Position numbers and translations under genes: made by a program
Part shown: piece by piece, positions 11,480 through 32,727 of the stretch
Layout: each line of letters begins with the position of its first letter
Position numbering within the stretch: the first letter of the stretch is position 1
Assembly (NCBI GenBank): GCA_041653595.1
Contig: JBAZFB010000001.1
Coordinates: 4,467-68,466 of the forward strand
From: Candidatus Omnitrophota bacterium
GTDB lineage: Bacteria; Omnitrophota; Gorgyraeia; Pluralincolimonadales; Pluralincolimonadaceae
Direction of reading: 5' to 3'
Length of the DNA: 64,000 nucleotides
The notes under the pieces: model-generated
Database searches by the model: none
Seen by the model: only the letters and a program-made list of their open reading frames with translations
Told to the model about the DNA's origin: nothing

Positions 11480-12874
11480 CTATGGGATCATTATTCCCGA
11501 ACGGATGATTTCTGCGAATTTTTCTGACGATGGCCGTATTATTCGTTCCTGCGTCGTATAGTCCACCCCTATCAACCCAAATCGCGGGACAAACCCTTCG
11601 TTCCATTCATAATTATCCAAGAGCGACCAATAAAGATAACCGATGACAGGGGCCCCCTCTTCCATCGCCTGCGCCACAGCCTTAAGATGCTCTACGATAA
11701 ATGCCACACGCTCGGTATCATCGTTGGTAGTAATCCCGTTTTCTGAAACCAAAAGGGGCAATTTGTACCGCGAAAATTCTTTAAGGAACATATACAATCC
11801 CTTCGGATAAATTTCCCATGAAAGAAAATTATATTTACCTGAATGACGGAACTGTTCTGCGGCTTCGCGCGCATTACCTGAAATTTCCGGGAATCCAAAC
11901 CCGCGGCTGGTGACAAAAACCCGCGTGTAATAATTCAAACCTATAAAATCCAGGGTTTTTCCTCTCGGCAAGTGAACATAGAAAAATCCTAAAATACAGG
12001 CTCTTCCCTGTACCAAAGCCTGGACAAATAATCGGTTAAACATCAAATCGCAAGAACCTGTCGCAACCCGGTCCATTAACGAATAGCCCGATGAAGCCTG
12101 GAATACGAGCACGCTTTGGGCAATCCCGACCATAGGCACTTCCCAGCCTTTTTGAGCATAGGTCTCTTTGATCTTTTCATACGCCAGGACATGCCCCAGA
12201 AGTAAATTTTTGAAAACTTTTAATGTTTTATCCGTTGATTTTTCTCCCGGCGGCCATTCGCCGCTCATATATCCCCTGAAGGCGTGGACAACCGGCTCAT
12301 TCAGCGTTATCCAATAATGGACATCGCCTCCGAGAGCATCGGTCACTTTCTGGGCGTATCTGGCAAATAGTTCCGGGGTCTTCTCTGAAAGCCACCCTCC
12401 CTGGTGCGCCAGCCATACGGGAACTGTAAAATGATACAAAGTCACAACAGGCTCTATCCCCTTTGACTTAAGCGAATTGATGACCTCGCGATAATGATCC
12501 AAGGCAGAGGCGTCAAATTGGCCTTCCCGGGGCTCAATGCGGCTCCATTCAATGGAGAAACGGTGGGCTGTGTGTCCTAAAGTCTGGGCAAGCTTAAAAT
12601 CCTCTTCAAAACGGTTCCATTGGTCGCACGCCTGGCCTGAACGAGTTACCGGGGGCCGGGTTTGTTCCCACTCCCACCAATCATTATTAGTATTATTCCC
12701 CTCGACCTGGTGAGAGGAGGTGGAAGCTCCCCATATAAAATCTTTCGGAAATGTAAACTTGTGCGGTACCGTTTTTGTTATTGCCGTTTTATTGATACCG
12801 GCACATCCGCTAAGAAGAAAAACAATCAGCGCGAGGACAATAGAACAACGGCTTTTTTTCGAATGAATTCGCAT
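11480..12874 (-). CDS. GH1 beta-glucosidase, lipoprotein; catalytically intact paralog
   Basis: TFPKDFIWGASTSSHQVEG, ITLNEP (acid/base) and LLVSENG (nucleophile) are all present, plus a lipobox LLSGCAG. Confidence 0.9.
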   Translation of the reverse strand: MRIHSKKSRCSIVLALIVFLLSGCAGINKTAITKTVPHKFTFPKDFIWGASTSSHQVEGNNTNNDWWEWEQTRPPVTRSGQACDQWNRFEEDFKLAQTLGHTAHRFSIEWSRIEPREGQFDASALDHYREVINSLKSKGIEPVVTLYHFTVPVWLAHQGGWLSEKTPELFARYAQKVTDALGGDVHYWITLNEPVVHAFRGYMSGEWPPGEKSTDKTLKVFKNLLLGHVLAYEKIKETYAQKGWEVPMVGIAQSVLVFQASSGYSLMDRVATGSCDLMFNRLFVQALVQGRACILGFFYVHLPRGKTLDFIGLNYYTRVFVTSRGFGFPEISGNAREAAEQFRHSGKYNFLSWEIYPKGLYMFLKEFSRYKLPLLVSENGITTNDDTERVAFIVEHLKAVAQAMEEGAPVIGYLYWSLLDNYEWNEGFVPRFGLIGVDYTTQERIIRPSSEKFAEIIRSGIMIP

Positions 12875-14014: not shown

Positions 14015-14026
14015 ATTACGCGGCTA

Positions 14027-14828
<802 letters not shown>

Positions 14829-14859: not shown

Positions 14860-17595
14860 TTATATGCTCCGTTTCCCCTTGAGCTTTATAACCTCTTCCC
14901 TTATGCCAAAGGCTATTGCCTCATATTCATCTTTGACCCCCGATCTTAGCCCCTCTTTCATGAGCTCGCCAAAATCAAAAGGCCTTCCAAAAGTTACTTT
15001 GATCGGATGAGGCCTCGGAAGCGGCTTTGTCCTCGGCCAGGATTCGTATGAACCCGTCATTAATACGGGAACCAGAGGGACATTCAGCTCTTTCGCCAAT
15101 ATCCCGACCCCTTTTTTGAATTCCTTAATATTTCCGTCGATAGTCCTTTGGCCCTCCGGGAAAATACAGATTATCTTGTCATTTCGAAGAACATAAGAAG
15201 ATGCCTGCATAGCTTCCACGAAGTGCATACCCGGATCGATGGGAATGACCCTGATATATTTTACGATATTTCTGATTAAGAACTGTTCGAAATAGGCCCT
15301 GAAACCTACGAAGAAAAGACTCTTTCGTAAACTCGCAGGCATAGAAGCCTCAATGATAAACGCGTCCAGGTAACTGCCGTGGTTGACGCACAGGATGCAC
15401 TTTCCCGTTCTCGGGATATTTTCTGTCCCGAAAACCTCAAGCCGCCAGATCACCCTGAAGACAAGGCGTAAAATTTCAGAGAATAGCAGCATCCCTAAAA
15501 TTGCCATCCGGTTCGGCGCCAGATTGACCTTTTTTATTATATCTTCGGCGGGTTTTTCATTTAAGATCTCATTCCATAGAGCGCGGCTCTTGACCTGCGG
15601 AATGAGCTCTCCCTGGACCCCTTCACCCGGGACCAGCCTCTCTATCCCGAGAATAAGTTCTTTAACGGTAGAGGCCTTAGCCATTACCTCATCCGGTATG
15701 GTAATGTTAAGCGCCTGCTCCAACATCACCATCAGCTCCACGCGGCCCAGCGAATCGATACCTAGATCTAATTCCAGATGATCGGCCGGGGATATCCCCC
15801 TTTTTAACTTCGCATGTTTATTAAGGGCTTCTATTATCCTGCTGCTGACACCGGAAGAGAGCAACCTGAGGTCCTCATCTGTAGCGGGAATTTCCTCCGC
15901 CGCGCCGTCTAATTTTATACCTTTAAGCTCATCCAGATATTTTTTCTTAACTTCATATCTTTTTATCTTGCCTAACCGCGTGCGCGGTATGCCCTCCTTT
16001 ACAATAATAAAGCCCTTGATGCGTTTGTAGGGAGCAAGTCCTTCAGACAGGTTTTCCAGCTCCCACCTGATCGTACTGTTAAGATCGACCTCTCCCTTCT
16101 CGCGGCAATAGTCAGCGTCAGGCACCACTACGGCGGACAGCCTCTCTTCCTCCGTTCCGCCGACGCCAAGGACGCATATTTCTTTAATGTAAGGGCTCTT
16201 GGTATAATGGGATTCTACCTCTTCGGGATAGATGTTTTTCCCGGAGCTTAAAACAATTATCTCTTTCTTCCTACCTGTAATATAAAGATAGCCGTCCTTG
16301 TCTATACGGCCAAGGTCGCCGGAGTAAAACCAGCCGTCCTTTAAAACGCTCGAGGTCTCGTCCGCCCGTTTATAGTAGCCTTTCATGACATTGGGGCCTT
16401 TGATCACCACCTCGCCCATACCCGCTGCGTCGGGACTGTCAATTTTCAATTCCACATCCGGGATCACTCTGCCGACAGAACCGATCTTCGGCTTCTTTAA
16501 CGGGTTGAAAGCTACTACTGGCGATGTTTCGGTAAGTCCGTATCCTTCAAGTATAGTGAAACCTATTTTCACAAGGAATCTCGCCGCTTCTTCATTTAAC
16601 TTTGCGCCGCCGCAGGCAAAAAATCTTAAAGCCCGCCCGAATGGCCGGTGTATTGCCGGCAGGGCAAACCTGCTTAAATTTATTCCGCTAAACCTTCTTA
16701 TTAGCCATAATATCTCTATCAGCCCTAAAAGAGGCATCCTTAACATAAACGGTATCTTCTTTATCTTATCCGATATACTCATATAAAACAGGGAAATGAG
16801 CTGCGGCACGCCTACCAATACCGTTACCCCTGCCTCCCTCATCCGGTCCAGCAATTCATCGCTCCTAATGCTCGAAGTATACGTGACCCCCGCGCGGCAG
16901 AAAAGAGGCGTGATCAGCGTGATCATAAATGGGTAGGCGTGATGCAACGGCAATATCGATATGAAAATATCCTTATCCGAGAAGAGTTTCAGCTTGTCGA
17001 TACTTTGAAAATCAGAGTAAATATTCTCATGCGTGAGCATCACCCCTTTTGGCTTATCGGTGGTGCCTGATGTATAGATAAGCGAAGCGATATCTTCGGA
17101 AAGGACCTCGGGCCATGCGGCGCCTTCAGATGAAGTAAGTTTTACCTGAGACAGGCCTATAAGGTTATCCTTTTGAATATCAAGGTCCAGGATGACGATC
17201 TTGTCCAGCCCTGACTTTATCTTATTAATATTTTTCGCCTGAAAAACGGCATAGGAGACAAATATGACCTTTGCGGCGCAGTCATTGATGAGATTTCCTA
17301 TCTCTTGTTCGGTCAGCTGCGGATCTAAAGGAACGCAGGTAAGGCCCGCAGCCATTATGCCTAAATAGATCACCGCCCATTCCGGACGGTTCTCTAAACA
17401 TATAGCCGCGAAGTCCCCCTTCTTAAAACCCTCTTTAATAAGAAACGCGCCTATCCTCAGGGAGAGGTCTTCTGTTTGCCCATATGTCCATCTCTCCCAG
17501 GCAGGGCCTTTTTTTATCTGAAGGCACACCCTGTCTGAAAACCGGGAAGAAATTTGGGCAAATATCTTATGGATGACCATATCTTCCTTTTTCAT
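14860..17595 (-). CDS. Tri-domain acyl-activating enzyme (AMP-binding)–ACP–PlsC-type acyltransferase (Aas-like but self-contained)
   Basis: AMP-binding motif [16 protein letters not shown]; carrier motif [15 protein letters not shown]; PlsC motifs VNHGSYLD and FPEGQRT. The start was set at MKKEDM, whose ATG overlaps the TGA of the upstream hydrolase (ATGA at 17592-17595). Confidence 0.85.
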
Positions 17596-18359
17596 AGTGT
17601 ACCAAGAAACCATTTTTTTACTTCTGTGACGAATTGCCCGGGATAATCCCGCATTAAGTACTCTGCGTGCGGCCCGTTCTTTATAATGATCATTTTCTTC
17701 GTCCCGCTTGCCTTTTGGTATAGGGCCTCGGAATGCCACGGCCTGATCACCCAATCCCGGCTGCCGTGCATGAACATGATCGGAATGGTGATCTTACCGA
17801 CGTTATCAATGGGCCTCTTCTTAGCCAGCCAGAATGGCCCCGGTCGCACGCCTTTACCGATTTTTCCCTTAGGATCCGATAAAATGTACGCCACGTCACC
17901 TTTCCAGTCAAGGGCCCATACCCAGTAATCAATTCTCGATATATTCGACGGCGCGCTGACACAAATAAAACTATCCACGCGTTTATCATTAGCGAGGAGA
18001 TTAATACTGATGCTTGCTCCCATAGAAAAAGCAACCAACCCGATCTTAGGGTATTGCGGAGCGATAAAATCTAATACCGCCCGTAAATCATTCTCTTCCC
18101 GGCTCGTCCAGGTAAACACGCCGCTGCTTTTGCCATGCCCGCGAAAATCAAACATAAAAATATCGTACTCTCCGCCAAGCGCCTGAGTCAACTGCTGCAA
18201 AAGCAGGCACTGTTTACTATTATAATAACCATGCGCAATAATGATAACGGCGAGCCCGCCATTCTTAAAATGCTGGAATGATATTTTCTGGCGGTCAACG
18301 GTGGCAAGCGTACCGCTGACTACCGCGGGAATAACTGCTTCAAGGCCCGGCGTTTTCAT
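17592..18359 (-). CDS. alpha/beta-fold hydrolase (lipase/thioesterase-like)
   Basis: GHGKSSG and AFSMGAS (GxSxG) motifs; translationally coupled to the downstream tri-domain enzyme. Confidence 0.8.
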   Translation of the reverse strand: MKTPGLEAVIPAVVSGTLATVDRQKISFQHFKNGGLAVIIIAHGYYNSKQCLLLQQLTQALGGEYDIFMFDFRGHGKSSGVFTWTSREENDLRAVLDFIAPQYPKIGLVAFSMGASISINLLANDKRVDSFICVSAPSNISRIDYWVWALDWKGDVAYILSDPKGKIGKGVRPGPFWLAKKRPIDNVGKITIPIMFMHGSRDWVIRPWHSEALYQKASGTKKMIIIKNGPHAEYLMRDYPGQFVTEVKKWFLGTL

Positions 18360-19155: not shown

Positions 19156-19707
19156 TCACATAGGGGGCAAGGAGCTGAAATTGGCATCATCAAAATAGCA
19201 GCACCCCCCTGTCTTCTTTTTGGCAGCCTGGATCACTGCCTTGATCTTTGCTTTAGCGGCGCCTGAGGGCGCAATAACCGCCGGAGTTGATAAAAGCTTC
19301 CAAGTATCGCTGGCGACGGTAAGCGGAGGGCTCTTTATCGGCTCACTTATTATGACGTTATCGGTAGTGCACCATTCTATCTGTATCCACGCTTTAGAAT
19401 CGCCGGAAATAGAGTCGCCGGGCTTGCCTAAAATATAGACGCTCGCTTTATACTGCATGCCGGGAATTATTTTTATGTACTGTTCAAATGATCCGTCTCC
19501 ATAATCCCAAACCCAAGTCTTTCCGGATTGTTTGCCGCTCCTATAGGTTCCCGTATCATATGTGGCGTCGCCGTACAAACCCCATCCGGACGGACCAGCT
19601 TTTTCAAAACCCGGGTTGACAAGCAAATTACCTTGCTCAGCGAACGAGGATAAACCAACAGAGCTCAGGGCAAGGACAAGAAAACAAATAAGACATGATC
19701 TTCTCAT
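19156..19707 (-). CDS. Secreted CBM4_9-like (NPGFE-type) carbohydrate-binding protein, paralog 1
   Basis: Signal peptide then LLVNPGFEKA…; three paralogs occur in tandem; sits directly downstream of promoter cassette copy 1. Confidence 0.6.
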   Translation of the reverse strand: MRRSCLICFLVLALSSVGLSSFAEQGNLLVNPGFEKAGPSGWGLYGDATYDTGTYRSGKQSGKTWVWDYGDGSFEQYIKIIPGMQYKASVYILGKPGDSISGDSKAWIQIEWCTTDNVIISEPIKSPPLTVASDTWKLLSTPAVIAPSGAAKAKIKAVIQAAKKKTGGCCYFDDANFSSLPPM

Positions 19708-19721
19708 CCTTATGTTCCTCC

Positions 19722-19816
19722 TTTTATTTAGCTGGTTTTATTATAGGGGTAATGTCTTGCTATATCAAGGATTTTTGGGTATCAGGGAGGGATTTACTCG
19801 CGGAATTTGAGGCCAC
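19722..19816 (-). repeat. Promoter cassette copy 1 (-35 TTGATA at 19763-19768, -10 TATAAT at 19740-19745 on the minus strand, 17-bp spacer) plus the upstream arm GGAATTTGAG…
   Basis: Read directly from the sequence; about 80-90% identical to the copies at 22255, 25821 and 33681. Confidence 0.55.
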
Positions 19817-19873
19817 TATTAAGAAAATTTTGGGGCAGGGATCTTGGACCCCTGCCCCATCTCTAAACGAAAC

Positions 19874-20464
19874 TTACTTAACTGACTTTTTTCTGTTGAA
19901 ACCAAACAAACCGACCAATCCTGAGCCGAGCAAAAGCATGCTTGCCGGTTCCGGAACTGCCTGCGCATCAAAGTTGGCATTGTCGAAGTAGACATCATTG
20001 CCGCTATGGCTAGTAGGAGATACCAGAACATAACCCAGCTTTGCCGTCGTGGCGCCGTCCGGCGCTACCGTCCATGGAGTTTCAAAGTACGTCCAGTCGG
20101 TATTAGCGGTTGTAAGCTTGGCGCTCTCTACGGCCGTTCCCGCACCATCCCACTGGAACTGTATCCAAGCGCTACCGGTATCTAAACCGGCAGATTTCAG
20201 ATAGCCGCTTGCCTTATAGGCAACACCCCCCGTAACATCAACCGTCTGTTCGAACTTCCCATCGGCGTAGTTCCATGACCAAGCATGCGCTGACTGGGCG
20301 CCGCTCATCTTTACCTCTGTAACATAGTTGCTATCACCCCAGTTGCTCCAACCAGTGCCGGTTTCAAACCCAGGGTCGCTGAGCAAGTTAGCGGATGCTG
20401 TTGACGGCGTTGAGATAAGCGCGACTGCCATGATCACCAAAGTTGCAAAATAGAATTTCTTCAT
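19874..20464 (-). CDS. Secreted CBM4_9-like protein, paralog 2, with a C-terminal PEP-CTERM sorting signal
   Basis: Signal peptide, LLSDPGFETGTGW…, and a C-terminus VPEP-ASMLLLGSGLVGLFGF-NRKK, which is the canonical PEP motif plus TM helix plus basic tail. Confidence 0.7.
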   Translation of the reverse strand: MKKFYFATLVIMAVALISTPSTASANLLSDPGFETGTGWSNWGDSNYVTEVKMSGAQSAHAWSWNYADGKFEQTVDVTGGVAYKASGYLKSAGLDTGSAWIQFQWDGAGTAVESAKLTTANTDWTYFETPWTVAPDGATTAKLGYVLVSPTSHSGNDVYFDNANFDAQAVPEPASMLLLGSGLVGLFGFNRKKSVK

Positions 20465-20503
20465 TTAACTATTTCACCTCCTCTCTTTTCTTTATTCTTG
20501 TAT

Positions 20504-20527
20504 GTTTCTGCTCACGAGAGCAGAAAC
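20504..20527 (-). promoter_or_regulatory. 10-bp perfect stem-loop (GTTTCTGCTC-ACGA-GAGCAGAAAC) in the leader of paralog 2, about 35 nt upstream of its start codon
   Basis: Perfect inverted repeat; it shares the core GCTC(A/T)CG(A/T)GAGC with the hairpin at 21162-21189. Confidence 0.4.
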
Positions 20528-20590
20528 ATTAAAAATCTGTCTCTAATATCCTTCTCATCGGGAATAAGATCTGTTGCTTACATTAATATA

Positions 20591-21136
20591 TTACGGGACC
20601 GTCCTGAAATCCGCATCATCAAAATAGCAAGACCCCGGAGTGTTCTTTTGGGCAGCCTGGATCACTACCTTGATCTTTGCTTTAGCGGCGCTTGGGGGCG
20701 CAATAGCCGTCGGAGTTGATAAGATCGCCCAAGTGTCGCTGGCGCCGGCAAGAGGAGAGCTCTTTACCGGGTCACCAATTATGGCGCTATCGGCAGTGCA
20801 CCATTCTATCTGTATCCACACCTTAGAATCGCCGGAAATAGGGTCGCTGGGTTTACTTAAAACAGAGACGCTCGCTTTATACTGCGTGCCGGGAATTACA
20901 TCGACATACTGCTCGAATACTCCATCGCCATAATCCCAAGCCCAAGCCTTTCCGGATTGTATACCGCTCTTATAGGTTTCAGTATCATATGTAGAGTCGC
21001 CGTACAGATCCCATCCAAGCGAATCAGCTTTTTCAAAACCCGGGTTGACAAGCAAGTTACCGTCAGCAGCGAATAAGGACAAAATGAAGAAAGTCAAAAC
21101 GAAAACAAGAATACAGCCTACGCATACCCCTTTCAT
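20591..21136 (-). CDS. Secreted CBM4_9-like protein, paralog 3 (start at MKGVCVG, preceded by AAAGGAGGAAGG)
   Basis: LLVNPGFEKADSLGW…; about 70% identical to paralog 1; no PEP-CTERM. Confidence 0.65.
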   Translation of the reverse strand: MKGVCVGCILVFVLTFFILSLFAADGNLLVNPGFEKADSLGWDLYGDSTYDTETYKSGIQSGKAWAWDYGDGVFEQYVDVIPGTQYKASVSVLSKPSDPISGDSKVWIQIEWCTADSAIIGDPVKSSPLAGASDTWAILSTPTAIAPPSAAKAKIKVVIQAAQKNTPGSCYFDDADFRTVP

Positions 21137-21161: not shown

Positions 21162-21189
21162 CCTATGCTCTCGTGAGCATAAACATAGG
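21162..21189 (-). promoter_or_regulatory. Nested stem-loop CCTATGCTC-TCGTG-AGCAT-AAA-CATAGG in the leader of paralog 3, downstream of a TTGACA–17–TAACCT promoter (21187-21215)
   Basis: Inverted repeats read directly; -35 TTGACA at 21210-21215 and -10 TAACCT at 21187-21192 on the minus strand. Confidence 0.4.
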
Positions 21190-21234
21190 TTACCATATAG
21201 GCTTTATAATGTCAAGCCGATTTTATTGCTTTTT

Positions 21235-22233
21235 TTAGGTTGATTTTCTAATAACAAGTTTTGGCTCAAAAAAACGCGTGTAGTCCTTATTTTTGCCTTG
21301 GGGGATGACATTTTTGATCAATGTCTCGGCAGCCGCAAAGGCCATATCTTTTACCGGCTGAGAAATCGTAGATAAGGAAGGAGAAAAATTTTCACAGCTC
21401 GGTATATTGTCAAAGCCGATCACGGCTATATCTTTGGGTATATCCCTGCCGGCTTGTTTAATAGCTGACATCGCCGCAAGGGCCATCCTATCGTTTGCGG
21501 CAAAGACAGCGTCGGGGGGTTCTTTTAATGATAACAGCCTTTCGATGGCCAGTTTCTCATAATTAACATGATTATTATCATCGTTATATTGCACGTATTC
21601 AATTATTACCTGTTTGTCCGCCTCTTGTAAAGCTTTTTTATATCCTCTGAATCTATCCTCGGCATCCACCCAGTTCTTGTGGCCATGAATGAACGCTATC
21701 CTCTTGCGGCCGGAATCCAATAAATATTTTGTTGCCAGATAGCCTCCCGTAACATTATCGCAGTCGAAAGAAGAAAGATCCTTAAGATGCGAACATAAAA
21801 GGACTAAGGGTACCTTTTTATCCTGCAATCCAAGCACGTCTTTATAATTGTCTTTTCCGATAGCCGGCAAGATAAAACCTGATACTGATTTATTCAGATA
21901 CGTATTCAAACATTCAAAACTATTAAATTTATCCTGGGTAAATAACATGACTTGATAGCCTTCTTTCTTGGCGGCTTCACTTACACCTTTGATTATTTCC
22001 TGGACATAAGGCTCCATACTAAAGAGGCCTCCTCCAAAGAAAAGAAGCCCAAGGACGTTTATTTTTCCCGAAAGAAGTCTGGCGGAATGGATATTAGGAG
22101 CGTAGGGTTCTTTTTTAAGGTAATCCAGCACCAAAGCGCGGGTTTTTTCCGAAACATACCTGTCTTCCCTTAAGACCCGCGCTACGGTAAACCTTGATAC
22201 TTTTAATTTTTTTCCTATTTCCCTAAGGGACAT
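21235..22233 (-). CDS. LacI-family transcriptional regulator
   Basis: N-terminal helix-turn-helix LREIGKKLKVSRFTVARVL and a periplasmic-binding-protein-like C-terminal domain. Confidence 0.85.
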   Translation of the reverse strand: MSLREIGKKLKVSRFTVARVLREDRYVSEKTRALVLDYLKKEPYAPNIHSARLLSGKINVLGLLFFGGGLFSMEPYVQEIIKGVSEAAKKEGYQVMLFTQDKFNSFECLNTYLNKSVSGFILPAIGKDNYKDVLGLQDKKVPLVLLCSHLKDLSSFDCDNVTGGYLATKYLLDSGRKRIAFIHGHKNWVDAEDRFRGYKKALQEADKQVIIEYVQYNDDNNHVNYEKLAIERLLSLKEPPDAVFAANDRMALAAMSAIKQAGRDIPKDIAVIGFDNIPSCENFSPSLSTISQPVKDMAFAAAETLIKNVIPQGKNKDYTRFFEPKLVIRKST

Positions 22234-22254: not shown

Positions 22255-22325
22255 TCCTTAATTAGCTGGTTTTATTATAGGGATAATATCTTGCTATATC
22301 AAGGATTTTTGGGGATTAAAGGCGT
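22255..22325 (-). repeat. Promoter cassette copy 2 (-35 TTGATA at 22297-22302, -10 TATAAT at 22274-22279), positioned to drive the LacI regulator
   Basis: TTGATA, a 17-bp spacer, TATAAT, then AAAACCAGCTAA, as in the other copies. Confidence 0.55.
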
Positions 22326-22332
22326 CATCTCC

Positions 22333-24945
22333 CTATCGCCCCGCATACGCAAAGCGGGTCTGGAGCCGGATGTCGCGGGATGAACTGCCGACGAGAATGT
22401 CGAATTCGCCGGGTTCGGCGACCCAACCCTTCGCCTCAGCGTCGTAGAACGCGAGGGCTCGCTCGTTCAAACGGAAGATGACCTGCTTCGTTTCGCCCGG
22501 CGCCAACTCCACCTTCTCGAACCCCTTGAGCTCCTTCACGGGGCGGAGCAGGCGGGACTCGACATCGTGGACGTAGAGTTGCACGACTTCCTTGCCCTTG
22601 CGCTTGCCCGTGTTCGTGATGTCCACGCTAGCGACAAGGGTCTTGGGGTCCACATTCAGGTTGCTGTACTTGAATGTCGTGTAGGACAATCCGTGCCCGA
22701 ACGGGAAAAGGGGTTCCACGTTCCGAGTGTCGTAGTAACGGTAGCCGACCAGCAGGCCTTCCTTATACTCGCAGTCCTTATCGTTGTACTGCCCGATCGC
22801 GTGGGCTGGACAGTCCTCGAGCCGCTTGGGAAACGTGATCGGCAGCTTGCCGGAGGGGTTGACGTCACCGAACACGATGTCGGCCACGGCGTTTCCGGCT
22901 TCCATGCCGGCATACCACGTCTGGACCACGCAGGGCACTTTGTCGATCCACGGCATCTCTACGGCGCTGCCGGAGATCAGGAACACGGCAGTGCGCGGAT
23001 TGGCCGCCGCGACTGCCTCGATCAACTCGTTCTGCCGCCCGTGCAGCCGGATGTCACGACGGTCCTCACCCTCCATGTCGTACCGATGGTTCTGGCCCGC
23101 GAACACCAGCACGGCATCTGCCGCGCGCGCCGCCTTGATCGCCTCGGCAAATTCGACTTCGGGGCCGACGCGGGAGTCCGGCCGGACCCAACCCAGTTTG
23201 ACCATCGCATCGCCGCTGGATTCATAGTACTCCACCTCGAAGCGGTAGGTCTGGCCCGCGGCCAACTCGATCTTCGCGTCTTTCCGTTCCTCTGCATGAT
23301 CGGCCCAGTTGTCGATCACCACCTTGCCGTTGATCTTCAGCCTCGAACCGTCGTCGCTCGTGAGGCCCAAGTTATAGATCCCGTTGGCAGTCGGCAGGAT
23401 ATCAGCCGTCCACCGCGCGGAGAAGTTATCCTTGGATACACCTGCGGCCGGACCCAGGTCCTTCCAGTTAAAGTCCATGGCCTTCTCATACCGGATCTCG
23501 ACCGGCTGACCATTCAGATTACGGTTGTTGAAGTACTCGCCCTTCCAACTCCGGATGTTTGACTTGGGATCCGTGGTCTGCACATACTTATCGCTGATCG
23601 CTTCGAAGACCGTGGCGTCGCCCGTGTCCCGGTAGCCCTCCACGTACGTGATCTTAACCATTCCCCCGCCCTTGCGTTTCAGCCCCTCGAGCGGGGTGAT
23701 TTCGTAAAGCGCGCGGATCGCCGAACTGCCGCCTTGATTCGCATGCTGCATGACGGCGTTCTCGCCGATCACCGCGAGCTTCAGTGTCTTGTTAATGTCG
23801 AGCGGCAGGACGCCGTCGTTCTTCAGCAGCACCATCGCCTCGCCGGCGACATCCCGGACCGCCTGCTGGTTTGCGGCGGTGTTGCGCGATCCGGTCTTGC
23901 GTGTCGACGGATCAAGCATACCGGCCCGGATCATGAAGCGGAGGATCCGCCGGACCTTGTCGTCGACGACGCTCTCCGGAATCTCCCCGCGCTCGACGGC
24001 CTGCCGAAGGGGATTCGCAAAGAAGAAGGTGTCGTAGTTGTCCGACGTGCCCATCTCTATATCGAGCCCGTTCACCGCGGCATCGCGCGTGCTGTGCGTT
24101 CCGCCCCAGTCCGAAATACAGACGCCGTCGAACCCCCACTCCCCCTTGAGAATGTCGTTCACGAGGTACTTGTTCTCCCCGCACCACTGTCCCCGGAACT
24201 TGTTGTAGGAGGTCATGATAGTCCAGGCACCCGCGCGGACGGCCGCCTCGAACGCCGGCAGGTAAATTTCGCGCAGGGTGCGCTCGTCGGCCACCACGTT
24301 GACCCAACCGCGGTTCCACTCCTGGTTATTCAGCGCGTAGTGCTTCACGCACGCCGCCACATCGTTGCTCTGGATGCCGCGCACCACCTCGGACGCCATC
24401 TGGCCGACTTGGTACGGGTCCTCGCCGTAATACTCAAAATTGCGGCCACAGACGGGAGTGCGGACGATGTTGATGCCGGGGCCCAGGAGGATGTCCTTGT
24501 TACGATGACGCGCCTCCGTGCCCAATGTTTCGCCGAATCGGCGTCCCATTTCCCGATTCCAAGTCGATGCCAGCGCGGAGCCGGTCGGGAGATAGGTCAC
24601 GTAGTCATCCTCCCACCCCGCGGGCTCCCAGGAGTTGGCGGCGGTTTCGCGCCGTACTCCGTGCGGGCCGTCGGACATCGCCACACGGGGGATCCCCAGC
24701 CGTTCAATCCCGGCGGTATTGAACTTCGAATTGGCGTGGCAAAGCGAAAGCTTTTCGGCCAGCGACATCTGCTTCAGCAGGTCATTGATGCGTGTTTCAA
24801 TTGCCGGCACCGGCGCGAGGTTCTCAGCTTTGTCGATAGCGGTCGCGGCAACAGCTTGAGTTTCTGATCCAAAACCCTGGAGTCCGCCGCATGATATAGT
24901 GAATGTTACCAGAAGTGTGACGAAAATGTACTTAAACATATTCAT
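22333..24945 (-). CDS. GH3 beta-glucosidase (BglX-like) with a PA14 insertion and a C-terminal Fn3-like domain; secreted or lipoprotein. GC-rich gene.
   Basis: GH3 motifs (KHYALNNQE, GFDGVCISDWGG), a PA14-like segment (FSARWTADILPTANGIYNLGLTSDDGSRLKINGK), and an N-terminus MNMFKYIFVTLLVTFTISCGG. Confidence 0.9.
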   Translation of the reverse strand: MNMFKYIFVTLLVTFTISCGGLQGFGSETQAVAATAIDKAENLAPVPAIETRINDLLKQMSLAEKLSLCHANSKFNTAGIERLGIPRVAMSDGPHGVRRETAANSWEPAGWEDDYVTYLPTGSALASTWNREMGRRFGETLGTEARHRNKDILLGPGINIVRTPVCGRNFEYYGEDPYQVGQMASEVVRGIQSNDVAACVKHYALNNQEWNRGWVNVVADERTLREIYLPAFEAAVRAGAWTIMTSYNKFRGQWCGENKYLVNDILKGEWGFDGVCISDWGGTHSTRDAAVNGLDIEMGTSDNYDTFFFANPLRQAVERGEIPESVVDDKVRRILRFMIRAGMLDPSTRKTGSRNTAANQQAVRDVAGEAMVLLKNDGVLPLDINKTLKLAVIGENAVMQHANQGGSSAIRALYEITPLEGLKRKGGGMVKITYVEGYRDTGDATVFEAISDKYVQTTDPKSNIRSWKGEYFNNRNLNGQPVEIRYEKAMDFNWKDLGPAAGVSKDNFSARWTADILPTANGIYNLGLTSDDGSRLKINGKVVIDNWADHAEERKDAKIELAAGQTYRFEVEYYESSGDAMVKLGWVRPDSRVGPEVEFAEAIKAARAADAVLVFAGQNHRYDMEGEDRRDIRLHGRQNELIEAVAAANPRTAVFLISGSAVEMPWIDKVPCVVQTWYAGMEAGNAVADIVFGDVNPSGKLPITFPKRLEDCPAHAIGQYNDKDCEYKEGLLVGYRYYDTRNVEPLFPFGHGLSYTTFKYSNLNVDPKTLVASVDITNTGKRKGKEVVQLYVHDVESRLLRPVKELKGFEKVELAPGETKQVIFRLNERALAFYDAEAKGWVAEPGEFDILVGSSSRDIRLQTRFAYAGR

Positions 24946-25010
24946 ACCTTTGCTCCTTTTTATACAAATCATTTAATAATAGCTCCTTTTTTCATTGTTT
25001 CTCTTTATAT

Positions 25011-25102: not shown

Positions 25103-25807
25103 TTACACGATTTTTCCAAAAAGGGCACCCACGGCGGCCGTCAACGCCATTGCTAATGCTCCCCAAAACGTAACGCGAATAGCTGCTCTCGCTATGGGTG
25201 CTCCGCCTACGAATGCCGCCAGCGCCCCTAACCCCGCGAGAAAAACAAGCGTGACCCCAAAAACAACGGGAACCAATTTCGTTCCCGGAACTACAAACAC
25301 GATGAGAAGCGGCATCGCTGCGCCGACAGAAAAACTCGCTGCCGATGCCCACGCGGCTTGTAACGGGTGAGCGATGAAATTAAGAGAGATGCCGAGTTCG
25401 TCACGGGCGTGTGCCGACAATGCGTCATGGGCCATCAATTGCTCGGCAACCTGTTTTGCGAGCGGCGGATCCAGTCCCCGGCCCTCGTAGATTGACGCCA
25501 GCTCCCTGTGCTCGTTTTCATTATCTACATCGAGTTCCTTGCGCTCGCGCGCCAGGTCTGCTCTTTCGGTATCGGCCTGTGAGCTTACCGATACGTACTC
25601 GCCGGCCGCCATTGACATCGCCCCTGCGACCAAACCGGCGACGCCGGCGACCAATACTGAACCTCTAGACGCGTGAGCCGCAGCTACGCCCACAATGAGG
25701 CTTGCGGTTGATACTATCCCATCGTTCGCGCCCAGAACTGCGGCACGTAACCAACCAATCCGGTACGTACGATGATGTTCCCTATGACTACTTCTGGCCG
25801 CCACCAT
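25103..25807 (-). CDS. VIT1/CCC1-family (DUF125) iron/manganese transporter
   Basis: LRAAVLGANDGIVSTASLIVGVAAA and the C-terminal TM repeats. GC-rich like the GH3 gene. Confidence 0.8.
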   Translation of the reverse strand: MVAARSSHREHHRTYRIGWLRAAVLGANDGIVSTASLIVGVAAAHASRGSVLVAGVAGLVAGAMSMAAGEYVSVSSQADTERADLARERKELDVDNENEHRELASIYEGRGLDPPLAKQVAEQLMAHDALSAHARDELGISLNFIAHPLQAAWASAASFSVGAAMPLLIVFVVPGTKLVPVVFGVTLVFLAGLGALAAFVGGAPIARAAIRVTFWGALAMALTAAVGALFGKIV

Positions 25808-25820
25808 TGTATCTTCCTTT

Positions 25821-25926
25821 CAGCCGAGGGAAACCTCTCTAATTTAGCTGGTTTTATTATAAGGGTTATATCTTAGTATTTCAATAATTTTTGCGGAATT
25901 AGAGAGGGGTTTTATCGCGAAATTTT
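25821..25926 (-). repeat. Promoter cassette copy 3 (-35 TTGAAA at 25879-25884, -10 TATAAT at 25856-25861) with a 5'UTR module AGAGAGGTTTCCCTCGGCTG; positioned to drive the VIT gene
   Basis: Read directly from the sequence. Confidence 0.55.
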
Positions 25927-26382
25927 TAATATTTTGTAGTGTAGAATACCTGCCGGAATTTTTATCTCTATTGCTTCGCCCTCTTTATGATTTATTAAAC
26001 CTTTGCCGACAGGCGATGAAACGGATATCTTCCCCTGCTTATAGTCCGCCTCTACCTCAGAAACCAGCATATACACTATCTTCTCTTCTGTATCCAGGTC
26101 CTCGAGCTCTACTGTCGCGCCGATCAAAATCTTGTCTTTAGGCATCTCTTCATCATTAAGAATACGCACATAGGCCAGCTTCGCTTCCAACTCGGCTATC
26201 TTTTTTTCATTAAAAGCCTGATCTTCCTTGGCGGCATCATATTCGGAATTCTCAGAAATGTCTCCGTGATCCCTGGCTTCTCCTATAGCTTTCGATAATT
26301 GCCTGCGCTTCACCGTTTTTAAGCGCTCCAGGTCCTTTACCAATTTTTGATAACCTTCTTCGGTCAGATATATATCGCTCAC
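25912..26382 (-). CDS. greA: Transcription elongation factor GreA
   Basis: GreA/GreB N-terminal coiled coil and a C-terminal FKBP-like domain (SPVGKGLINHKEGEAIEIKIPAG). Confidence 0.9.
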   Translation of the reverse strand: MSDIYLTEEGYQKLVKDLERLKTVKRRQLSKAIGEARDHGDISENSEYDAAKEDQAFNEKKIAELEAKLAYVRILNDEEMPKDKILIGATVELEDLDTEEKIVYMLVSEVEADYKQGKISVSSPVGKGLINHKEGEAIEIKIPAGILHYKILKISR

Positions 26383-26383
26383 A

Positions 26384-28210
26384 TTAGTTATCCTGCGAAA
26401 ATATTACTACTGTGTATGGCCCGATATTGATTTTTCCGGAGCAAGGCAACCCATCGATTTTTTCCTCATGGGCCTCGACATCAGGGGTAGGATGATTTGC
26501 AAAATTTGGGCCGTATTTATATGAGTCGCTGTTAAATCGCGTTTTCCACAATCCGGCCCGCGGAAAACCGATGACATAACCATCGCAGTTTTGATTTATC
26601 ATATTTACCACCACAACTACGCTATCGGCCGGGCCTTGTTTGTCCCAGCGATGGAAAGCGATGATCTTGGCTCCATCGTCAAAATGATAGATATGGGTAT
26701 TTTGACCGCACAACCCACGCGTCACACCCGATAGATTGCGCCGCAACGCGATCAGGTCCCTGTACATTCCAAAAATACCGTGTTCATCCTCAACACGGGA
26801 CCAGTCGATCGGGTCTTTATCCTGGAACCAGCGGTCTTCCAGCAACTCTTGCCCTTCAAAAATCATCGGGATGCCCGGTGAAGTAAGGACAAGAGCGCCG
26901 GCCAAAGTAGAACGTTTCTTGGAAAACCAGCTATCCACCTTGCCCGGCCAGATCTCCTCCGGCACCCTGGACCGGCCATTGGCGACCTCGTCATGGGACT
27001 CTGTATAAATAATCCGCCGAAAGACGTCTAGATCGTAACGATGCTCGATAGCTTTACTGACTGCCCCCAGATCACGGAGTTTATCATCACGTGTGATGAC
27101 GGCCTGGCGAACGGGGTGAACGAATTCGGCATCCCATTGCGCGTTAAAACCTGCGCCGCCCGCTCCTACATTTTTGATGACCCAGGGGTTATTTTTCATG
27201 CTTTCGCCGATGCTGATCTTGCCGGGAAACAATTGTTGGATCTCCGTATTGATCCACTGCATCAAGCTCCAGCCTTCGGGGATGGCATTAGCCGAATTGT
27301 TGTCACTACCGTCAATGCTTTTGATATAGGCTATCATGTCCCAGCGTAATCCGTCGGCGCGGTACTCCTCGAACCACATCAGGGCGTTATCGCGCAAATA
27401 TTGGCGCACTTCGCCCCGGCCGTAATCGGGGCGTGTCTCGCCCCAGGGCGTTTGCGAGCAACGATCATTGTAAAAGAAGATTCCTCCCTTATTATTTTCG
27501 CTCCAACCGTCAAACTGCCACAAACTAAGATCGCCCGGGCCAAAGTGGTTGTAGACGACATCTATGATAACAGCGATACCATGTTCATGGGCCGCCTTCA
27601 CAAATCGCTTGAGCGCATCCGGCCCGCCGTAAATACTCTCAACGGCAAAGGGAAGCGCCGGATTGTAGCCCCACGAAAAATCACCTGCAAACTCCGCGAC
27701 AGGCATCACTTCGATGGCATTGATACCCAATTTTTTGAGATAAGGGAATTTTTCAATGGCACTATCAAAAGTGCCCGGTTGTCCCTTTTTTTTGACGTTA
27801 AAAGTGCCGATGTGCATCTCGTAAATGACAAGCTCATTCCCCGTGGCCATATGAAACTTATTATCACCCCAGTCAAAGGCTTTGGGGTCATAGATAACTC
27901 CGTTGCCGGTTGAGCCGGTCACCTTTCTGGCATAAGGATCGATGCGGGAAAGAGGAGGAAGCTTCCAATCGACAGGGGTGTGGATCATATACCTGTACTC
28001 ATCTCCCGCTTTTGCTCCCGGCACGCCGATCGACCAGTAACCGCCCTCTTCTTTGGCCAGGGGTATCGAGGTATCGTTCCATTCGTTGAAGGTTCCGGCC
28101 ACATAAACCTTTTCTGCATGCGGCGCCCATACGCGAAACGTTACACCCCTTGCACCGGGTATGGCCCCCATGCTCGGGCGCTTTATCGCGTTATTGGTTT
28201 TTTTTGGCAT
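26384..28210 (-). CDS. GH13 alpha-amylase-family enzyme with an N-terminal CBM48 (TreZ/GlgX/GlgB-like)
   Basis: CBM48 segment (GVTFRVWAPHAEKVYVAGTFNEWN) and GH13 conserved regions (DVVYNH, GLRWDM, IGES, YTESHDE). Confidence 0.85.
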   Translation of the reverse strand: MPKKTNNAIKRPSMGAIPGARGVTFRVWAPHAEKVYVAGTFNEWNDTSIPLAKEEGGYWSIGVPGAKAGDEYRYMIHTPVDWKLPPLSRIDPYARKVTGSTGNGVIYDPKAFDWGDNKFHMATGNELVIYEMHIGTFNVKKKGQPGTFDSAIEKFPYLKKLGINAIEVMPVAEFAGDFSWGYNPALPFAVESIYGGPDALKRFVKAAHEHGIAVIIDVVYNHFGPGDLSLWQFDGWSENNKGGIFFYNDRCSQTPWGETRPDYGRGEVRQYLRDNALMWFEEYRADGLRWDMIAYIKSIDGSDNNSANAIPEGWSLMQWINTEIQQLFPGKISIGESMKNNPWVIKNVGAGGAGFNAQWDAEFVHPVRQAVITRDDKLRDLGAVSKAIEHRYDLDVFRRIIYTESHDEVANGRSRVPEEIWPGKVDSWFSKKRSTLAGALVLTSPGIPMIFEGQELLEDRWFQDKDPIDWSRVEDEHGIFGMYRDLIALRRNLSGVTRGLCGQNTHIYHFDDGAKIIAFHRWDKQGPADSVVVVVNMINQNCDGYVIGFPRAGLWKTRFNSDSYKYGPNFANHPTPDVEAHEEKIDGLPCSGKINIGPYTVVIFSQDN

Positions 28211-28221
28211 CCTCTTTTCTC

Positions 28222-29199
28222 CTACAACCCGACTTCTTTAATAACTTCTTTGATAGCGCTTGAAGATTTTTTGAGCGCCTTCTCTTCTTTTTTAGTAAGC
28301 TCGAGTGTCAAAAGCCCTCTAACGCCGTTCTTGTTAACTACGGCGGGAAGGCTTAGATATACATCGCGCATATCCAGATAACCGGTGATCAGGCTTGACA
28401 CAGGCAAGACCGCGTTTTCATCATGAAGGATCGCCTGTGTTATCCTTGCCAAAGACAGGCCGATCCCATATGACGTCTCGCCCTTCTTTTCTATGATCTT
28501 ATAGGCGGAATCCCTTACTTCGAAAAATATTTCTTCCAGCTTTTCCTCGTGGCGGCACCCGTGTCTGTCGCCGCACACTGAACAATAATTTTTAAACAAA
28601 ACCCCGCCGATCGTAGCGTTACTCCAAATAGGCGATTCACTATTCCCGTGCTCGCCCAGAATATAGGCATGGACGTTGTGCGGATCTATTTTACAGTGCT
28701 TGGCTAAAAGGAACCGGAAGCGCGCCGTATCCAGAACCGTCCCGGAGCCGATCACTTCATTTGCCGGCTTAGACGAAAATTTGTAAGCCGCGTACGATAG
28801 GATATCTACGGGATTGGTTGCAATCAAGAGGATGGCCGAAGGGGCATATTTGACTATCTGAGATACTACCTGCCGGAAGATCTCTACATTGTCTTTGGCA
28901 AGCGCGAGCCTGGTCTGGCCGGGCTTTTGCTTCTTACCGGCGGTTATCACCACCAGATCGGAATCTTTTATATCCGGGTAGTCTCCGGAGGCGATCTCAA
29001 CCGGTGAGAGATAAGGCGCGCCGTGGGACAGGTCCATGACTTCCCCTTCAAGGCGCTTTTTGTCCATATCGGTTATAACAACGCTTCTTGCCAGCCCTTT
29101 CATGATCAGCGCGTAGGCATAACGCATCCCCACGTTACCGCAACCGATGATTGAAACCTTTGGTCTTAATTCAGTTGTAGATTTACTGGTGGCGATCAA
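28222..29199 (-). CDS. L-lactate/malate dehydrogenase (TTG start overlapping the upstream TGA)
   Basis: KVSIIGCGNVGM Rossmann motif, a GQTRLALAKDN substrate loop, and IGEHGNSE. Confidence 0.9.
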   Translation of the reverse strand: MIATSKSTTELRPKVSIIGCGNVGMRYAYALIMKGLARSVVITDMDKKRLEGEVMDLSHGAPYLSPVEIASGDYPDIKDSDLVVITAGKKQKPGQTRLALAKDNVEIFRQVVSQIVKYAPSAILLIATNPVDILSYAAYKFSSKPANEVIGSGTVLDTARFRFLLAKHCKIDPHNVHAYILGEHGNSESPIWSNATIGGVLFKNYCSVCGDRHGCRHEEKLEEIFFEVRDSAYKIIEKKGETSYGIGLSLARITQAILHDENAVLPVSSLITGYLDMRDVYLSLPAVVNKNGVRGLLTLELTKKEEKALKKSSSAIKEVIKEVGL

Positions 29200-29345
29200 A
29201 GCGGTTTACGTCCGCTGATCAAACGCAAAAGAATAACGACAATAGCGATGACGAGCAAGACGTGTATAAACCCGCCCAAAGTGTATGAGGTGACCAGACC
29301 TAACAGCCAAAGCACGACCAAAATAACCGCGATTGTGTATAACAT
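29196..29345 (-). CDS. lmo0937-family small membrane protein (49 aa), copy 2; not in the ORF track
   Basis: A GGAGG ribosome-binding site then [49 protein letters not shown]; about 90% identical to copy 1. Confidence 0.6.
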   Translation of the reverse strand: MLYTIAVILVVLWLLGLVTSYTLGGFIHVLLVIAIVVILLRLISGRKPL

Positions 29346-29484
29346 GCTCCGCCTCCTTTTATGATGATATTATATAAGTATACGGCCTTGAATTAATTAT
29401 ACCATTTCAGTGGTACAAATATCAAGCGAGGCACACCACGCCCCTTTAGGGGCGGACATTTGTGCACTGTGTGGGAATTTTATC

Positions 29485-29964
29485 TTATTTTTCTTTCAGG
29501 TTCTCGAAGGTCTCCTCATGGGTTATCTCTTCGCTCATTATGTGGGTGACGAGCTGGTAGGTCGCGTGGTCTTTACCGAAGGTCTTTTTGGCGATCTTGT
29601 TATAGACCTCTATCGCCCCAGCTTCCGCGGCTGTGACTAGCTTGATTATCGTGTCGTAATCGTGTAAGTTCTTCATCACGCCCGGATACGGGCTGTTCGC
29701 GTTCTTCTCAATGTCGCTCAGGCTGCTTGTCGGGATGCCGCCAAGCTTGACTATTCTGTCCGCCAATTCCGTGGCATGCTCGAGCTCGTCCTTGGCAATC
29801 TTGCCCAGGAACTCGGCCATATCCTCATAGCCCTTCCCGTCAACGGTCTGAGACATGAACCACCACGCGTAGTAAGCGAGCCACTCGTCGCAATACGCCT
29901 TATTCAGGTCCTTGATAAGGTCCTTCAGGTCGATCCCGACTATTTCCCTGGCTTTCTTGCCCAT
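29485..29964 (-). CDS. Ferritin-like (bacterioferritin/Dps/rubrerythrin superfamily) protein
   Basis: 159-aa four-helix-bundle-type sequence with the E…EXXH metal-site spacing (DELEHATELADRIV…EEITHEE). Confidence 0.55.
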   Translation of the reverse strand: MGKKAREIVGIDLKDLIKDLNKAYCDEWLAYYAWWFMSQTVDGKGYEDMAEFLGKIAKDELEHATELADRIVKLGGIPTSSLSDIEKNANSPYPGVMKNLHDYDTIIKLVTAAEAGAIEVYNKIAKKTFGKDHATYQLVTHIMSEEITHEETFENLKEK

Positions 29965-29995
29965 TTTAACCCTCCTTTTTTTATGTTGCTCCCCA

Positions 29996-31975: not shown

Positions 31976-32604
31976 TTTTTCTCCACAAATATGCTCGCGC
32001 AAACATCGGGCCCTAGGGCGATCTTGCTTCCTTTTATATTCAAGATCAGGGGTCCTCCGTTTAATTTGCGCACTACCCTGACTTTTGCCTGAGGAACAAA
32101 CCCGAGTGAATTCAAGCGCTCAAAGCATGCCTTGCTCTTGCTGGCTACAAACACAACCTCTGCCTTGCTTTTCTCCGGAAGCTGAGTCAACTCTACTACG
32201 TTGCTGTTCTTGTCGGGAATAGGATTGCCATCCGGACAAAGCTTCGGCTTCTTCAGCATGCTATCAAGCTTATCCGTTGCCGCGTCAGATAAAGCATGTT
32301 CCATGGCATGCGCTTCCTCATGGATATCTTTTTTTATTTTCAGATTTAGTACCCTGCTGAAAAAGACCTCCAGAAGCTGATGCTTTCTGACTATTTTTCT
32401 GGCTTCTTTGATCCCTAAGGCAGTAAGGCTGATCCCGCCGAAACGCTCGAAAGTAACTAATTTCTCCTTTTCAAGCCTTCTTATCATTTCGGAAACGCTT
32501 GGATCGGAAACCTTAAGCACACGTGCCAGTTCAGTAACCCTTGCAGCGCGGTTATTGCGGTACTGGATCATATACATTTCTTCGAGGTAATCTTCTTTTT
32601 TCAT
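31972..32604 (-). CDS. DtxR/MntR-family metalloregulator fused to a C-terminal FeoA (SH3-like) domain
   Basis: Helix-turn-helix RVTELARVLKVSDPSVSEMIRRLE, a dimerisation/metal-binding region, and a C-terminal FeoA-like segment VRKLNGGPLILNIKGSKIALG. Confidence 0.78.
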   Translation of the reverse strand: MKKEDYLEEMYMIQYRNNRAARVTELARVLKVSDPSVSEMIRRLEKEKLVTFERFGGISLTALGIKEARKIVRKHQLLEVFFSRVLNLKIKKDIHEEAHAMEHALSDAATDKLDSMLKKPKLCPDGNPIPDKNSNVVELTQLPEKSKAEVVFVASKSKACFERLNSLGFVPQAKVRVVRKLNGGPLILNIKGSKIALGPDVCASIFVEKK

Positions 32605-32614
32605 GGTCTTAATG

Positions 32615-32632
32615 TTAGGTTATCCTAACTTA
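32615..32632 (-). promoter_or_regulatory. DtxR-type iron box TTAGGTTATCCTAACTTA immediately upstream of the DtxR-FeoA/feoB operon
   Basis: Near-palindrome matching the TWAGGTWAGSCTWACCTWA consensus at about 14 of 19 positions, at the expected promoter position. Confidence 0.45.
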
Positions 32633-32679
32633 TTTATATAAGTTTATCACAGTTAAGTTATAAGTCAAGTAATTAATTT

Positions 32680-32727
32680 TTGAAAAAATAAAAAACGGCT
32701 ATGATCGCTGTTTCGACCATAGCCGTT
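32680..32727 (-). terminator. Rho-independent terminator: 10-bp stem AACGGCTATG/CATAGCCGTT followed on the minus strand by TTTTTTATTTTTT
   Basis: Read directly from the sequence; it lies downstream of the two-gene operon at 32797-33662. Confidence 0.6.

Follow-up and report, generated by a model that had tools for sequence, protein, structure and literature searches.

Three tandem genes for putatively exported carbohydrate-binding-module-like proteins, one with a PEP-CTERM signal, beside a LacI-family regulator gene in an Omnitrophota genome

The PEP-CTERM/exosortase (EpsH) protein-sorting system was described by Haft et al. 2006 (via PMC3048395) and is represented by the models TIGR02595, PF07589, TIGR02602 and TIGR02914; it was first described in the context of exopolysaccharide biosynthesis. 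Here, we report on three tandem genes, designated C, B and A in order of transcription, that encode small, putatively exported proteins within a 64 000 nt stretch (the window) of a 185,650-nt contig from a Candidatus Omnitrophota metagenome-assembled genome (MAG), and of which only the middle gene, B, encodes a PEP-CTERM tail. The Omnitrophota have not been cultured, and how they live is a matter of debate. To our knowledge, the roles of the cargo of PEP-CTERM/exosortase systems are still mostly unknown.

The locus resembles the described sorting system in that protein B has a putative signal peptide and, at its C-terminus, a VPEP motif, a transmembrane helix and an Arg/Lys cluster, and in that the same MAG, of a diderm-looking organism, also contains genes for an exosortase and EpsI. 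It differs in that two of the three paralogues (A and C) lack the signal, in that the exosortase homologue that was scanned reaches no named subtype, and in its cargo, which consists of proteins like carbohydrate-binding modules (CBMs) and a protein like glycoside hydrolase (GH) family 26 under LacI-type regulators, rather than belonging to exopolysaccharide biosynthesis. The small PEP-CTERM families of NCBIfam (FxDxF NF038126, NF038129, THxN and PepA) are of similar size (165–260 aa) and likewise combine a putative signal peptide and a single domain with a PEP-CTERM tail, but matches to them were far below the cut-offs and mostly covered the tail alone. These subfamilies, and the NTTRR-F1 domain, which also scored far below its cut-off, were rejected as the identity of the proteins, and none of the curated NCBIfam models describes the trio family.

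The domain itself is most similar to families CBM16, CBM4, CBM22 and CBM61 (Pfam CBM_4_9 clan; 2ZEX, 2XOM, 4XUP and 1GUI), with which it shares the jelly-roll, an N-terminal NxxxNxGFE motif and a C-terminal YxDD strand. Unlike those modules, the trio proteins are not joined to a catalytic domain and stand alone, with mature lengths of ~155 aa each; they are 13–24 % identical to the CBMs, fall below the Pfam gathering cut-off and have ligand-cleft residues that are only partly traceable, and binding is putative. By functional analogy, the trio is also reminiscent of the SusE/SusF-like surface glycan-binding proteins of Bacteroidota, which are non-catalytic, CBM-like and displayed on the cell, have genes that neighbour those for glycoside hydrolases and for a sugar-responsive regulator, and are often diverging paralogues. 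The Bacteroidota proteins, however, are anchored by N-terminal lipidation rather than by PEP-CTERM and have no sequence relationship to the trio, and the SusC/SusD genes of polysaccharide-utilization loci are not present at the trio locus.

Our best explanation for the locus as a whole, held with moderate confidence, is a regulated set of tethered and free non-catalytic glycan-binding proteins in a diderm Omnitrophota cell. In this model, A, B and C would be exported by Sec, and each would act as a single CBM4/9/16/22/61-type beta-sandwich that binds glycan without catalysis. B is predicted to have kept an ancestral PEP-CTERM signal, which an exosortase–EpsI pair encoded on another contig would recognize and cleave, retaining B on the envelope. 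A and C, which form the sister clade, are predicted to have lost the transmembrane and basic part and to be released in soluble form to the periplasm or outside. C and B would be transcribed as one unit behind lacI, from a TTGACA/extended −10 promoter, with a palindrome in each leader and a terminator after B, and the unit would probably be switched by the LacI-family regulator on a sugar signal. A would be transcribed alone, and probably constitutively, from a strong consensus sigma-70 cassette of the type predicted to drive lacI as well. The three genes and the sorting signal are located as follows.

20591-21136, minus strand: gene C (MFA5338543.1 / WC317_00125), 181 aa, putatively exported single-domain CBM_4_9-like beta-sandwich, anchor-less, with the C-terminal end CYFDDADFRTVP
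19874-20464, minus strand: gene B (MFA5338542.1), 196 aa, putatively exported CBM16-like beta-sandwich with a C-terminal PEP-CTERM signal
19877-19960, minus strand: PEP-CTERM signal of B, VPEPASMLLLGSGLVGLFGFNRKKSVK, comprising the PEP motif, transmembrane helix and basic cluster
19156-19707, minus strand: gene A (MFA5338541.1 / WC317_00115), 183 aa, putatively exported CBM_4_9-like beta-sandwich, anchor-less, with the C-terminal end CCYFDDANFSSLPPM

The ORFs are arranged head-to-tail, and the accessions for A, B, C and the LacI-family regulator, all on the same contig, were obtained by exact-sequence look-ups. An earlier note on this DNA, drawn from the sequence alone, had reported three tandem ORFs and quoted their C-termini; we recovered both the positions on the minus strand and the ends. 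The start of C was set at 21136, where a GGAGG ribosome-binding site and orthologue P0001 agree, and a longer ORF beginning at an ATG at 21196 was rejected, as it would start upstream of the putative −10 element. All three N-termini are basic and then hydrophobic, followed by an A-x-A-like site and NLL(V/S)(N/D)PGFE. By inspection, the putative signal peptide of B is MKKFYFATLVIMAVALISTPSTASA, in which a basic n-region precedes a hydrophobic core and the sequence A-S-A directly before NLL would be the cleavage site, and the AlphaFold2 (AF2) model of B has an N-terminal helix at residues 2–17. The note's description of a signal peptide followed by LLxNPGFE therefore applied to all three proteins as regards the signal-peptide-like segment, but the motif of B reads LLSDPGFE. 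Its estimate that all three are 60–70 % identical was true of the A/C pair alone (67 % at the protein level, 80 % at the DNA level), because B is 36–37 % identical to A (BLASTP E = 8e-35) and 41 % identical to C. Lipoprotein anchoring of A or C was considered and rejected: there are cysteines within the signal peptides, but inspection revealed no lipobox. A conserved disulfide in the A/C type was also rejected, as C170 is kept but its possible partner C113 is substituted in several orthologues.

Two models detected the sorting signal of B above their cut-offs, namely PF07589 at residues 169–192 (30.5 bits; cut-off 20.7) and TIGR02595 (24.2 bits; cut-off 16), and neither matched A or C. Consistent with the note's restriction of the VPEP–transmembrane–basic tail to the middle copy, a search of the window in six frames found no PEP-CTERM tail other than that of B. 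The AF2 model of B has a C-terminal helix at residues 173–187.

Structure prediction gave confident all-beta sandwiches for A and B (AF2 pLDDT 88.4 and 89.4, respectively), in agreement with the CBM-like jelly-roll that had been proposed. The Foldseek matches of A included CBM61, CBM16, CBM22 and CBM4, and the best match of B was the CBM16 structure 2zey (E = 1.5e-9). Across both models, the top matches were CBM16, CBM61, CBM22, CBM4, a porphyran-binding CBM, the Fbs1 sugar-binding domain and the carbohydrate-binding parts of phage tailspikes, with E-values of 1e-9 to 1e-6; CBM16, CBM61, CBM22 and CBM4 were matched with a probability of 1.00, and the TM-scores to CBM structures were ~0.7, normalized to the target. 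Family profiles built from 60–77 homologues were searched against the sequences of solved structures and matched CBM22 (E = 2.5e-10) and CBM16 (E = 7e-10); they also reached CBM61, CBM4 and porphyran-binding modules, with E-values to solved CBM structures of 1e-8 to 1e-10. Some homologues of the trio proteins carry a precomputed PF02018 match. The conserved residues W42, W65, W67, Y86, W107, Q109, W112 and W136 alternate along the strands. On the basis of these structure models and profile matches, we assign all three proteins to the CBM4/9/16/22/61 group of beta-sandwiches. In a search without a word index, the domain occurred mostly as repeats within large proteins.

The note had found no exosortase in the window and had supposed that the sorting partner lies elsewhere in the genome; both statements were borne out. 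Neither Pfam/NCBIfam scans of the 47 longer ORFs of the window nor tblastn with two Omnitrophota exosortases and EpsI proteins revealed an exosortase or EpsI there. A location on the window's own contig was rejected, as none of the search matches fell on it, although the flanks beyond the window were not read directly. An exosortase (P0095, MFA5339481.1) and EpsI (MFA5339482.1) were found on a 53,949-nt contig of the same MAG (L015), so that the genome does contain an exosortase–EpsI operon. P0095 was recovered by searching with the exosortase of distant Omnitrophota loci, which had themselves been reached via distant homologues of B, and P0095 and B were found in the same three datasets. The gene order at this locus (MFA5339478-84; L015 2244-5749) is TPR protein, exosortase, EpsI, a 225-aa PEP-CTERM protein and a GH26-like enzyme, which has its own C-terminal PEP-CTERM tail (VPEPASLLLLG...). 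The exosortase is flanked by WC317_04955 and WC317_04960, whose prefix is identical to that of A and C, and the exosortase locus and the window therefore belong to one assembly. The trio and the exosortase also occur together within one assembly in the two closest relatives (PHO67 tags), and in more distant Omnitrophota a single locus combines a TPR protein, exosortase, EpsI, a B homologue, LacI and several more PEP-CTERM paralogues. The exosortase of a related locus (L013), 70 % identical to that of the MAG, matched 8TM_EpsH at 150.8 bits against a cut-off of 105.55, and reached no named subtype in NCBIfam (XrtA, 170 against a cut-off of 208). The presence of Mla and AsmA genes in the window makes the organism look diderm. 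Our literature search for a link between Omnitrophota and exosortase or PEP-CTERM returned nothing relevant. As a separate observation, the Omnitrophota exosortase–EpsI operons (L015 and L010–L014) have PEP-CTERM proteins and a GH26-like enzyme with a PEP-CTERM tail of its own behind them, and in other MAGs one locus unites the exosortase, a LacI gene and several CBM-like PEP-CTERM paralogues.

Upstream of and between the trio genes, we identified the following elements, listed in the direction of transcription.

21235-22233, minus strand: LacI-family regulator (MFA5338544.1), 332 aa, directly upstream of C, with a cassette copy before it at 22255-22340
21187-21230, minus strand: putative promoter P_C, composed of AGCAAT, 10 nt, TTGACA (−35, 21215-21210), 17 nt and the extended −10 element TGGTAACCT (TAACCT, 21192-21187)
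21164-21181, minus strand: C-leader palindrome TATGCTC-ACGA-GAGCATA, beginning ~1 base past the −10 element; candidate LacI operator or 5′-terminal RNA stem-loop
20502-20529, minus strand: C–B intergenic palindrome ATGTTTCTGCTC-TCGT-GAGCAGAAACAT, ~40 nt upstream of the B start codon
19831-19859, minus strand: intrinsic terminator after B, with a 13-bp stem, nine G–C pairs and a T-rich tail, kept in L006
19721-19806, minus strand: promoter cassette of A, TTGATA-17-TATAAT at 19768-19740, with 11 of 12 matches to the consensus

P_C starts right behind the LacI stop codon and is the sole AGCAAT-N-TTGACA site in the window; the same promoter also precedes the B-type gene in the more distant L004 and L008. 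The strong terminator follows B, and A then has its own cassette, which is why C and B look like one regulated transcription unit and A appears to be independent and probably constitutive. The hairpin between C and B was discarded as an intrinsic terminator, as it has no T-tract. The placement of the first copy (A) behind a repeated promoter cassette, already reported in the earlier note, was confirmed, with the cassette directly upstream of A. Full copies of the cassette lie on the minus strand at 19721-19806, 22255-22340, 25837-25922 and 33716-33801, and its upstream half alone is at 246-283. The cassette (~50–86 nt; CAAAAATCCTTGATATAGNAAGANATTACCCCTATAATAAAACCAGCTAAAT) precedes unrelated genes, namely A, lacI, a VIT1-like gene and an ORF for a 106-aa small membrane protein. 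It also precedes the A-type gene in L006/L007 and L008/L009, and is present in three copies in each of L006 and L007. The spacer of the cassette and the region past its −10 element are as conserved as the hexamers themselves.

The regulator matched the LacI family (PF00356, 33.4 bits against a cut-off of 27) and also Peripla_BP_1/3/4, and its orthologues adjoin B-type genes in L004–L009. The leaders of C and B, which the note had described as each gene's own, have a palindromic core in common (TGCTC-N4-GAGCA; two sites in the window against 0.08 expected by chance), so that the earlier description was incomplete. The C-leader palindrome is kept in L001, L006 and L007, and the core TTTCTGCTCTCGNGAGCAGAA is kept upstream of B-type genes in L004, L006 and L008, whose LacI proteins are 69–98 % identical to that of the window. 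Loci with a LacI that is only 30 % identical have another repeated motif, AAACACGTGTCGA, in place of the palindrome. A central CG and a position between the promoter and the ribosome-binding site are typical of LacI-family operators. Separately, we observed that the leaders of PEP-CTERM genes at L010 (8911-9089 and 9717-10000), L013 (8002-8180 and 8808-9108) and L015 (3710-3911) carry two copies each of AAACACGTGTCGA or of ...GTTTCGA. The same leaders have TAGCAAT ~10 nt upstream of TTGACA; P_C has the AGCAAT-N10-TTGACA arrangement but another palindrome.

The gene order VIT1, GH3, LacI, C, B, A, Ysc84, superoxide dismutase (SOD) is kept in two related MAGs (L006 and L007). The order differs in a more distant genome (C, A, LacI, B, C), and another genome has LacI, B and A only. 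The ‘distinct fates’ that the earlier note had ascribed to the three copies are not peculiar to this genome, as the A-, B- and C-types are separate orthologous groups in the relatives, where the cassette of A is kept as well. Orthologue ratios of nonsynonymous to synonymous substitution (dN/dS) of A, B and C were 0.30, 0.11 and 0.10, respectively, compared with 0.05–0.13 for neighbouring genes: all three genes are functional and under purifying selection. Between the paralogues A and C, dN/dS was 0.47–0.58 (NG86) or 0.98–1.18 (YN00), and the differing sites were spread over the third (41), first (38) and second (28) codon positions. When the alignment was divided into 20-codon windows, 17 of them over the mature domain, each had more nonsynonymous than synonymous codon differences. 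The ratios and the even spread over codon positions fit a phase of faster amino-acid change after duplication followed by constraint, rather than decay. We rejected clear positive selection between A and C, as their dN/dS is raised but not convincingly above 1 and the orthologue values are 0.10–0.30. A diversity-generating or hypermutation origin of the differences was likewise rejected: the substitutions are gene-wide, mostly transitions and without adenine bias.

The earlier note had held that one copy gained a PEP-CTERM anchor, and our comparison points in the opposite direction. None of the 25 A/C-type homologues had the tail; they end no more than a few residues from the last FDDAxF strand, the C type at F-x-x-VP and the A type at an LPxM-like sequence, with one exception that has a long divergent extension. 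By contrast, all 49 sequences from the B clade and from the more distant homologues recovered with B carried PEP-CTERM (VPEP, a transmembrane segment and RRKK). We built a neighbour-joining tree of the domain and rooted it at the midpoint; in it, the A/C clade, which has no anchor, was sister to the B clade, and both were nested within PEP-CTERM-bearing sequences, which makes loss of the anchor the more parsimonious event and likelier than gain. Behind ...GTC CCG, C has the stop codon TAA at the position of a GAA codon in B, and most likely the anchor was lost in the A/C ancestor by truncation at the VP(EP) motif. A free secreted CBM-like ancestor, from which the B lineage gained its PEP-CTERM signal, would fit with the small anchor-less homologues found in other lineages (of 31 small representatives, 16 had a PEP-CTERM tail, two a VPxP variant and 13 neither) and with a tree that is only midpoint-rooted. 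We consider such a gain very unlikely, given the unanimity of the 49 sequences among which the A/C clade is nested, and the exact coincidence of the A/C ends with the VP of the VPEP position. Still less likely is decay, in which A and C would be truncated copies of a PEP-CTERM gene that no longer function. Their missing anchors, the high paralogue dN/dS and the nearly even distribution of differences over the three codon positions could be taken as signs of decay, but each gene has an unbroken reading frame with a ribosome-binding site and a putative signal peptide, the two types persist as separate orthologous groups in several genomes, the orthologues are constrained and the structure models are confident, and we give decay hardly any credence.

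More serious is the proposal that the palindromes are RNA stem-loops that stabilize or process the mRNA, and that the proximity of LacI is irrelevant to the regulation of C and B. The hairpins are strong (−14.7 kcal/mol for the C leader and 12 base pairs in the C–B leader; z-scores −5.1 and −2.6), and that of the C leader would form where the C mRNA is predicted to begin and uses G·U pairs. On the other hand, the inner 8 bp show no sequence variation, and no compensatory changes, among genomes with proteins that are only ~70–75 % identical; the site is positioned between promoter and ribosome-binding site and has the central CG of LacI-family operators; and Rfam gave no meaningful match for the leaders. 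We favour a LacI operator because the palindrome tracks LacI orthology, being replaced by the other motif where LacI is 30 % identical, and regard a purely RNA-based role as possible, if somewhat doubtful; a role at the mRNA level is conceivable because of the strong hairpins and the G·U-compatible change in a relative. It has also been proposed that Omnitrophota are host-dependent or predatory, with surface adhesins (PMC10066038), and the trio could on this basis be surface adhesins for the envelope polysaccharide of a host or prey rather than proteins for nutrient capture, with B as a tethered adhesin and A and C as soluble competitors or matrix components. The occurrence of the fold in receptor-binding parts of phage tailspikes and the fast divergence of the A/C paralogues (dN/dS 0.47–0.98) are compatible with adhesion. 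However, a LacI-type sugar regulator and GH3 and GH1 genes are linked to the locus, the exosortase locus has a GH26-like enzyme, the orthologues are under ordinary purifying selection, and this MAG lineage is not known to be host-associated; we therefore think that an adhesin function is unlikely. The reading that we prefer, of regulated tethered and free glycan-binding proteins, has its own weak points. For CBM_4_9 (PF02018; cut-off 25.9 bits), A scored 23.6 and C 17.2, and B had no match. The W-x-x-W/Y segment aligns with W-Q-D-W of CBM16-1, but the second aromatic residue of the CBM16 cleft does not align, and both glycan binding and the ligand are inferred. The putative promoter P_C has a −10 element too weak to be found by the consensus scan. 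The palindromes are equally good as RNA hairpins, and a substitution in L006 turns an A–U pair into G·U (A to G), a change that preserves pairing and fits an RNA structure. That the exosortase contig comes from the same organism presupposes correct binning of the MAG, and the direction of anchor change is a parsimony argument, not proof, from a tree of short sequences.

All components of the locus are of known kinds, and the finding thus adds an example rather than a new principle. Together, the trio and the exosortase loci of the same and related MAGs tie the sorting system to CBM-like and glycoside hydrolase cargo under sugar-type regulators, and they offer a natural comparison in which tethered and untethered forms of one domain stand side by side in several genomes. 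Besides LacI, the carbohydrate context of the trio comprises a GH3 gene and two GH1 genes within the window, together with the PEP-CTERM-tagged GH26-like enzyme beside the exosortase. A more interesting possibility is that exosortase sorting serves the capture of nutrient glycans. We speculate that in Omnitrophota an unnamed exosortase subtype may anchor a sugar-regulated surface system for glycan capture and degradation, a functional analogue of a polysaccharide-utilization locus, in which LacI-controlled CBM-like PEP-CTERM proteins and PEP-CTERM glycoside hydrolases would have the ‘genetically pre-released’ A and C as soluble partners. This extended scheme is tentative, and we would not at present expect it to hold in full; if true, the PEP-CTERM system would gain a nutritional role outside exopolysaccharide and biofilm biology.

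Among the neighbouring genes of the window, one is a conserved upstream neighbour of the trio and its regulator, with synteny kept in L006/L007.

22333-24972, minus strand: beta-glucosidase of family GH3 that contains a PA14 insert and has a signal peptide like that of a lipoprotein

The two GH1 beta-glucosidase genes (386-1810 and 11480-12874) are paralogues, with 76–77 % DNA identity over repeated segments. Between them lies a lipid/glycolipid block with a glycosyltransferase family 4 (GT4) gene, an acyl carrier protein–acyltransferase fusion, a GtrA-domain protein and a patatin-like phospholipase. A 964-aa fusion of AMP-ligase, acyl carrier and acyltransferase (14860-17754) was called from a TTG start and overlaps the upstream alpha/beta-hydrolase gene (17592-18359) by ~160 nt; its true start is probably further downstream. 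Genes for metal handling and oxidative stress form a run at 25103-33662, two of them behind copies of the promoter cassette. Within this run, VIT1 was confirmed via the synteny annotation of L006, and the FeoB-, DtxR-, rubrerythrin/ferritin- and redoxin-like labels were assigned from the translations by eye. Finally, a 160-nt direct repeat with 83 % identity occurs at 14022-14181, downstream of the SOD gene, and at 29191-29350, where it is flanked by ORFs that resemble rubrerythrin/ferritin and lactate/malate dehydrogenase.

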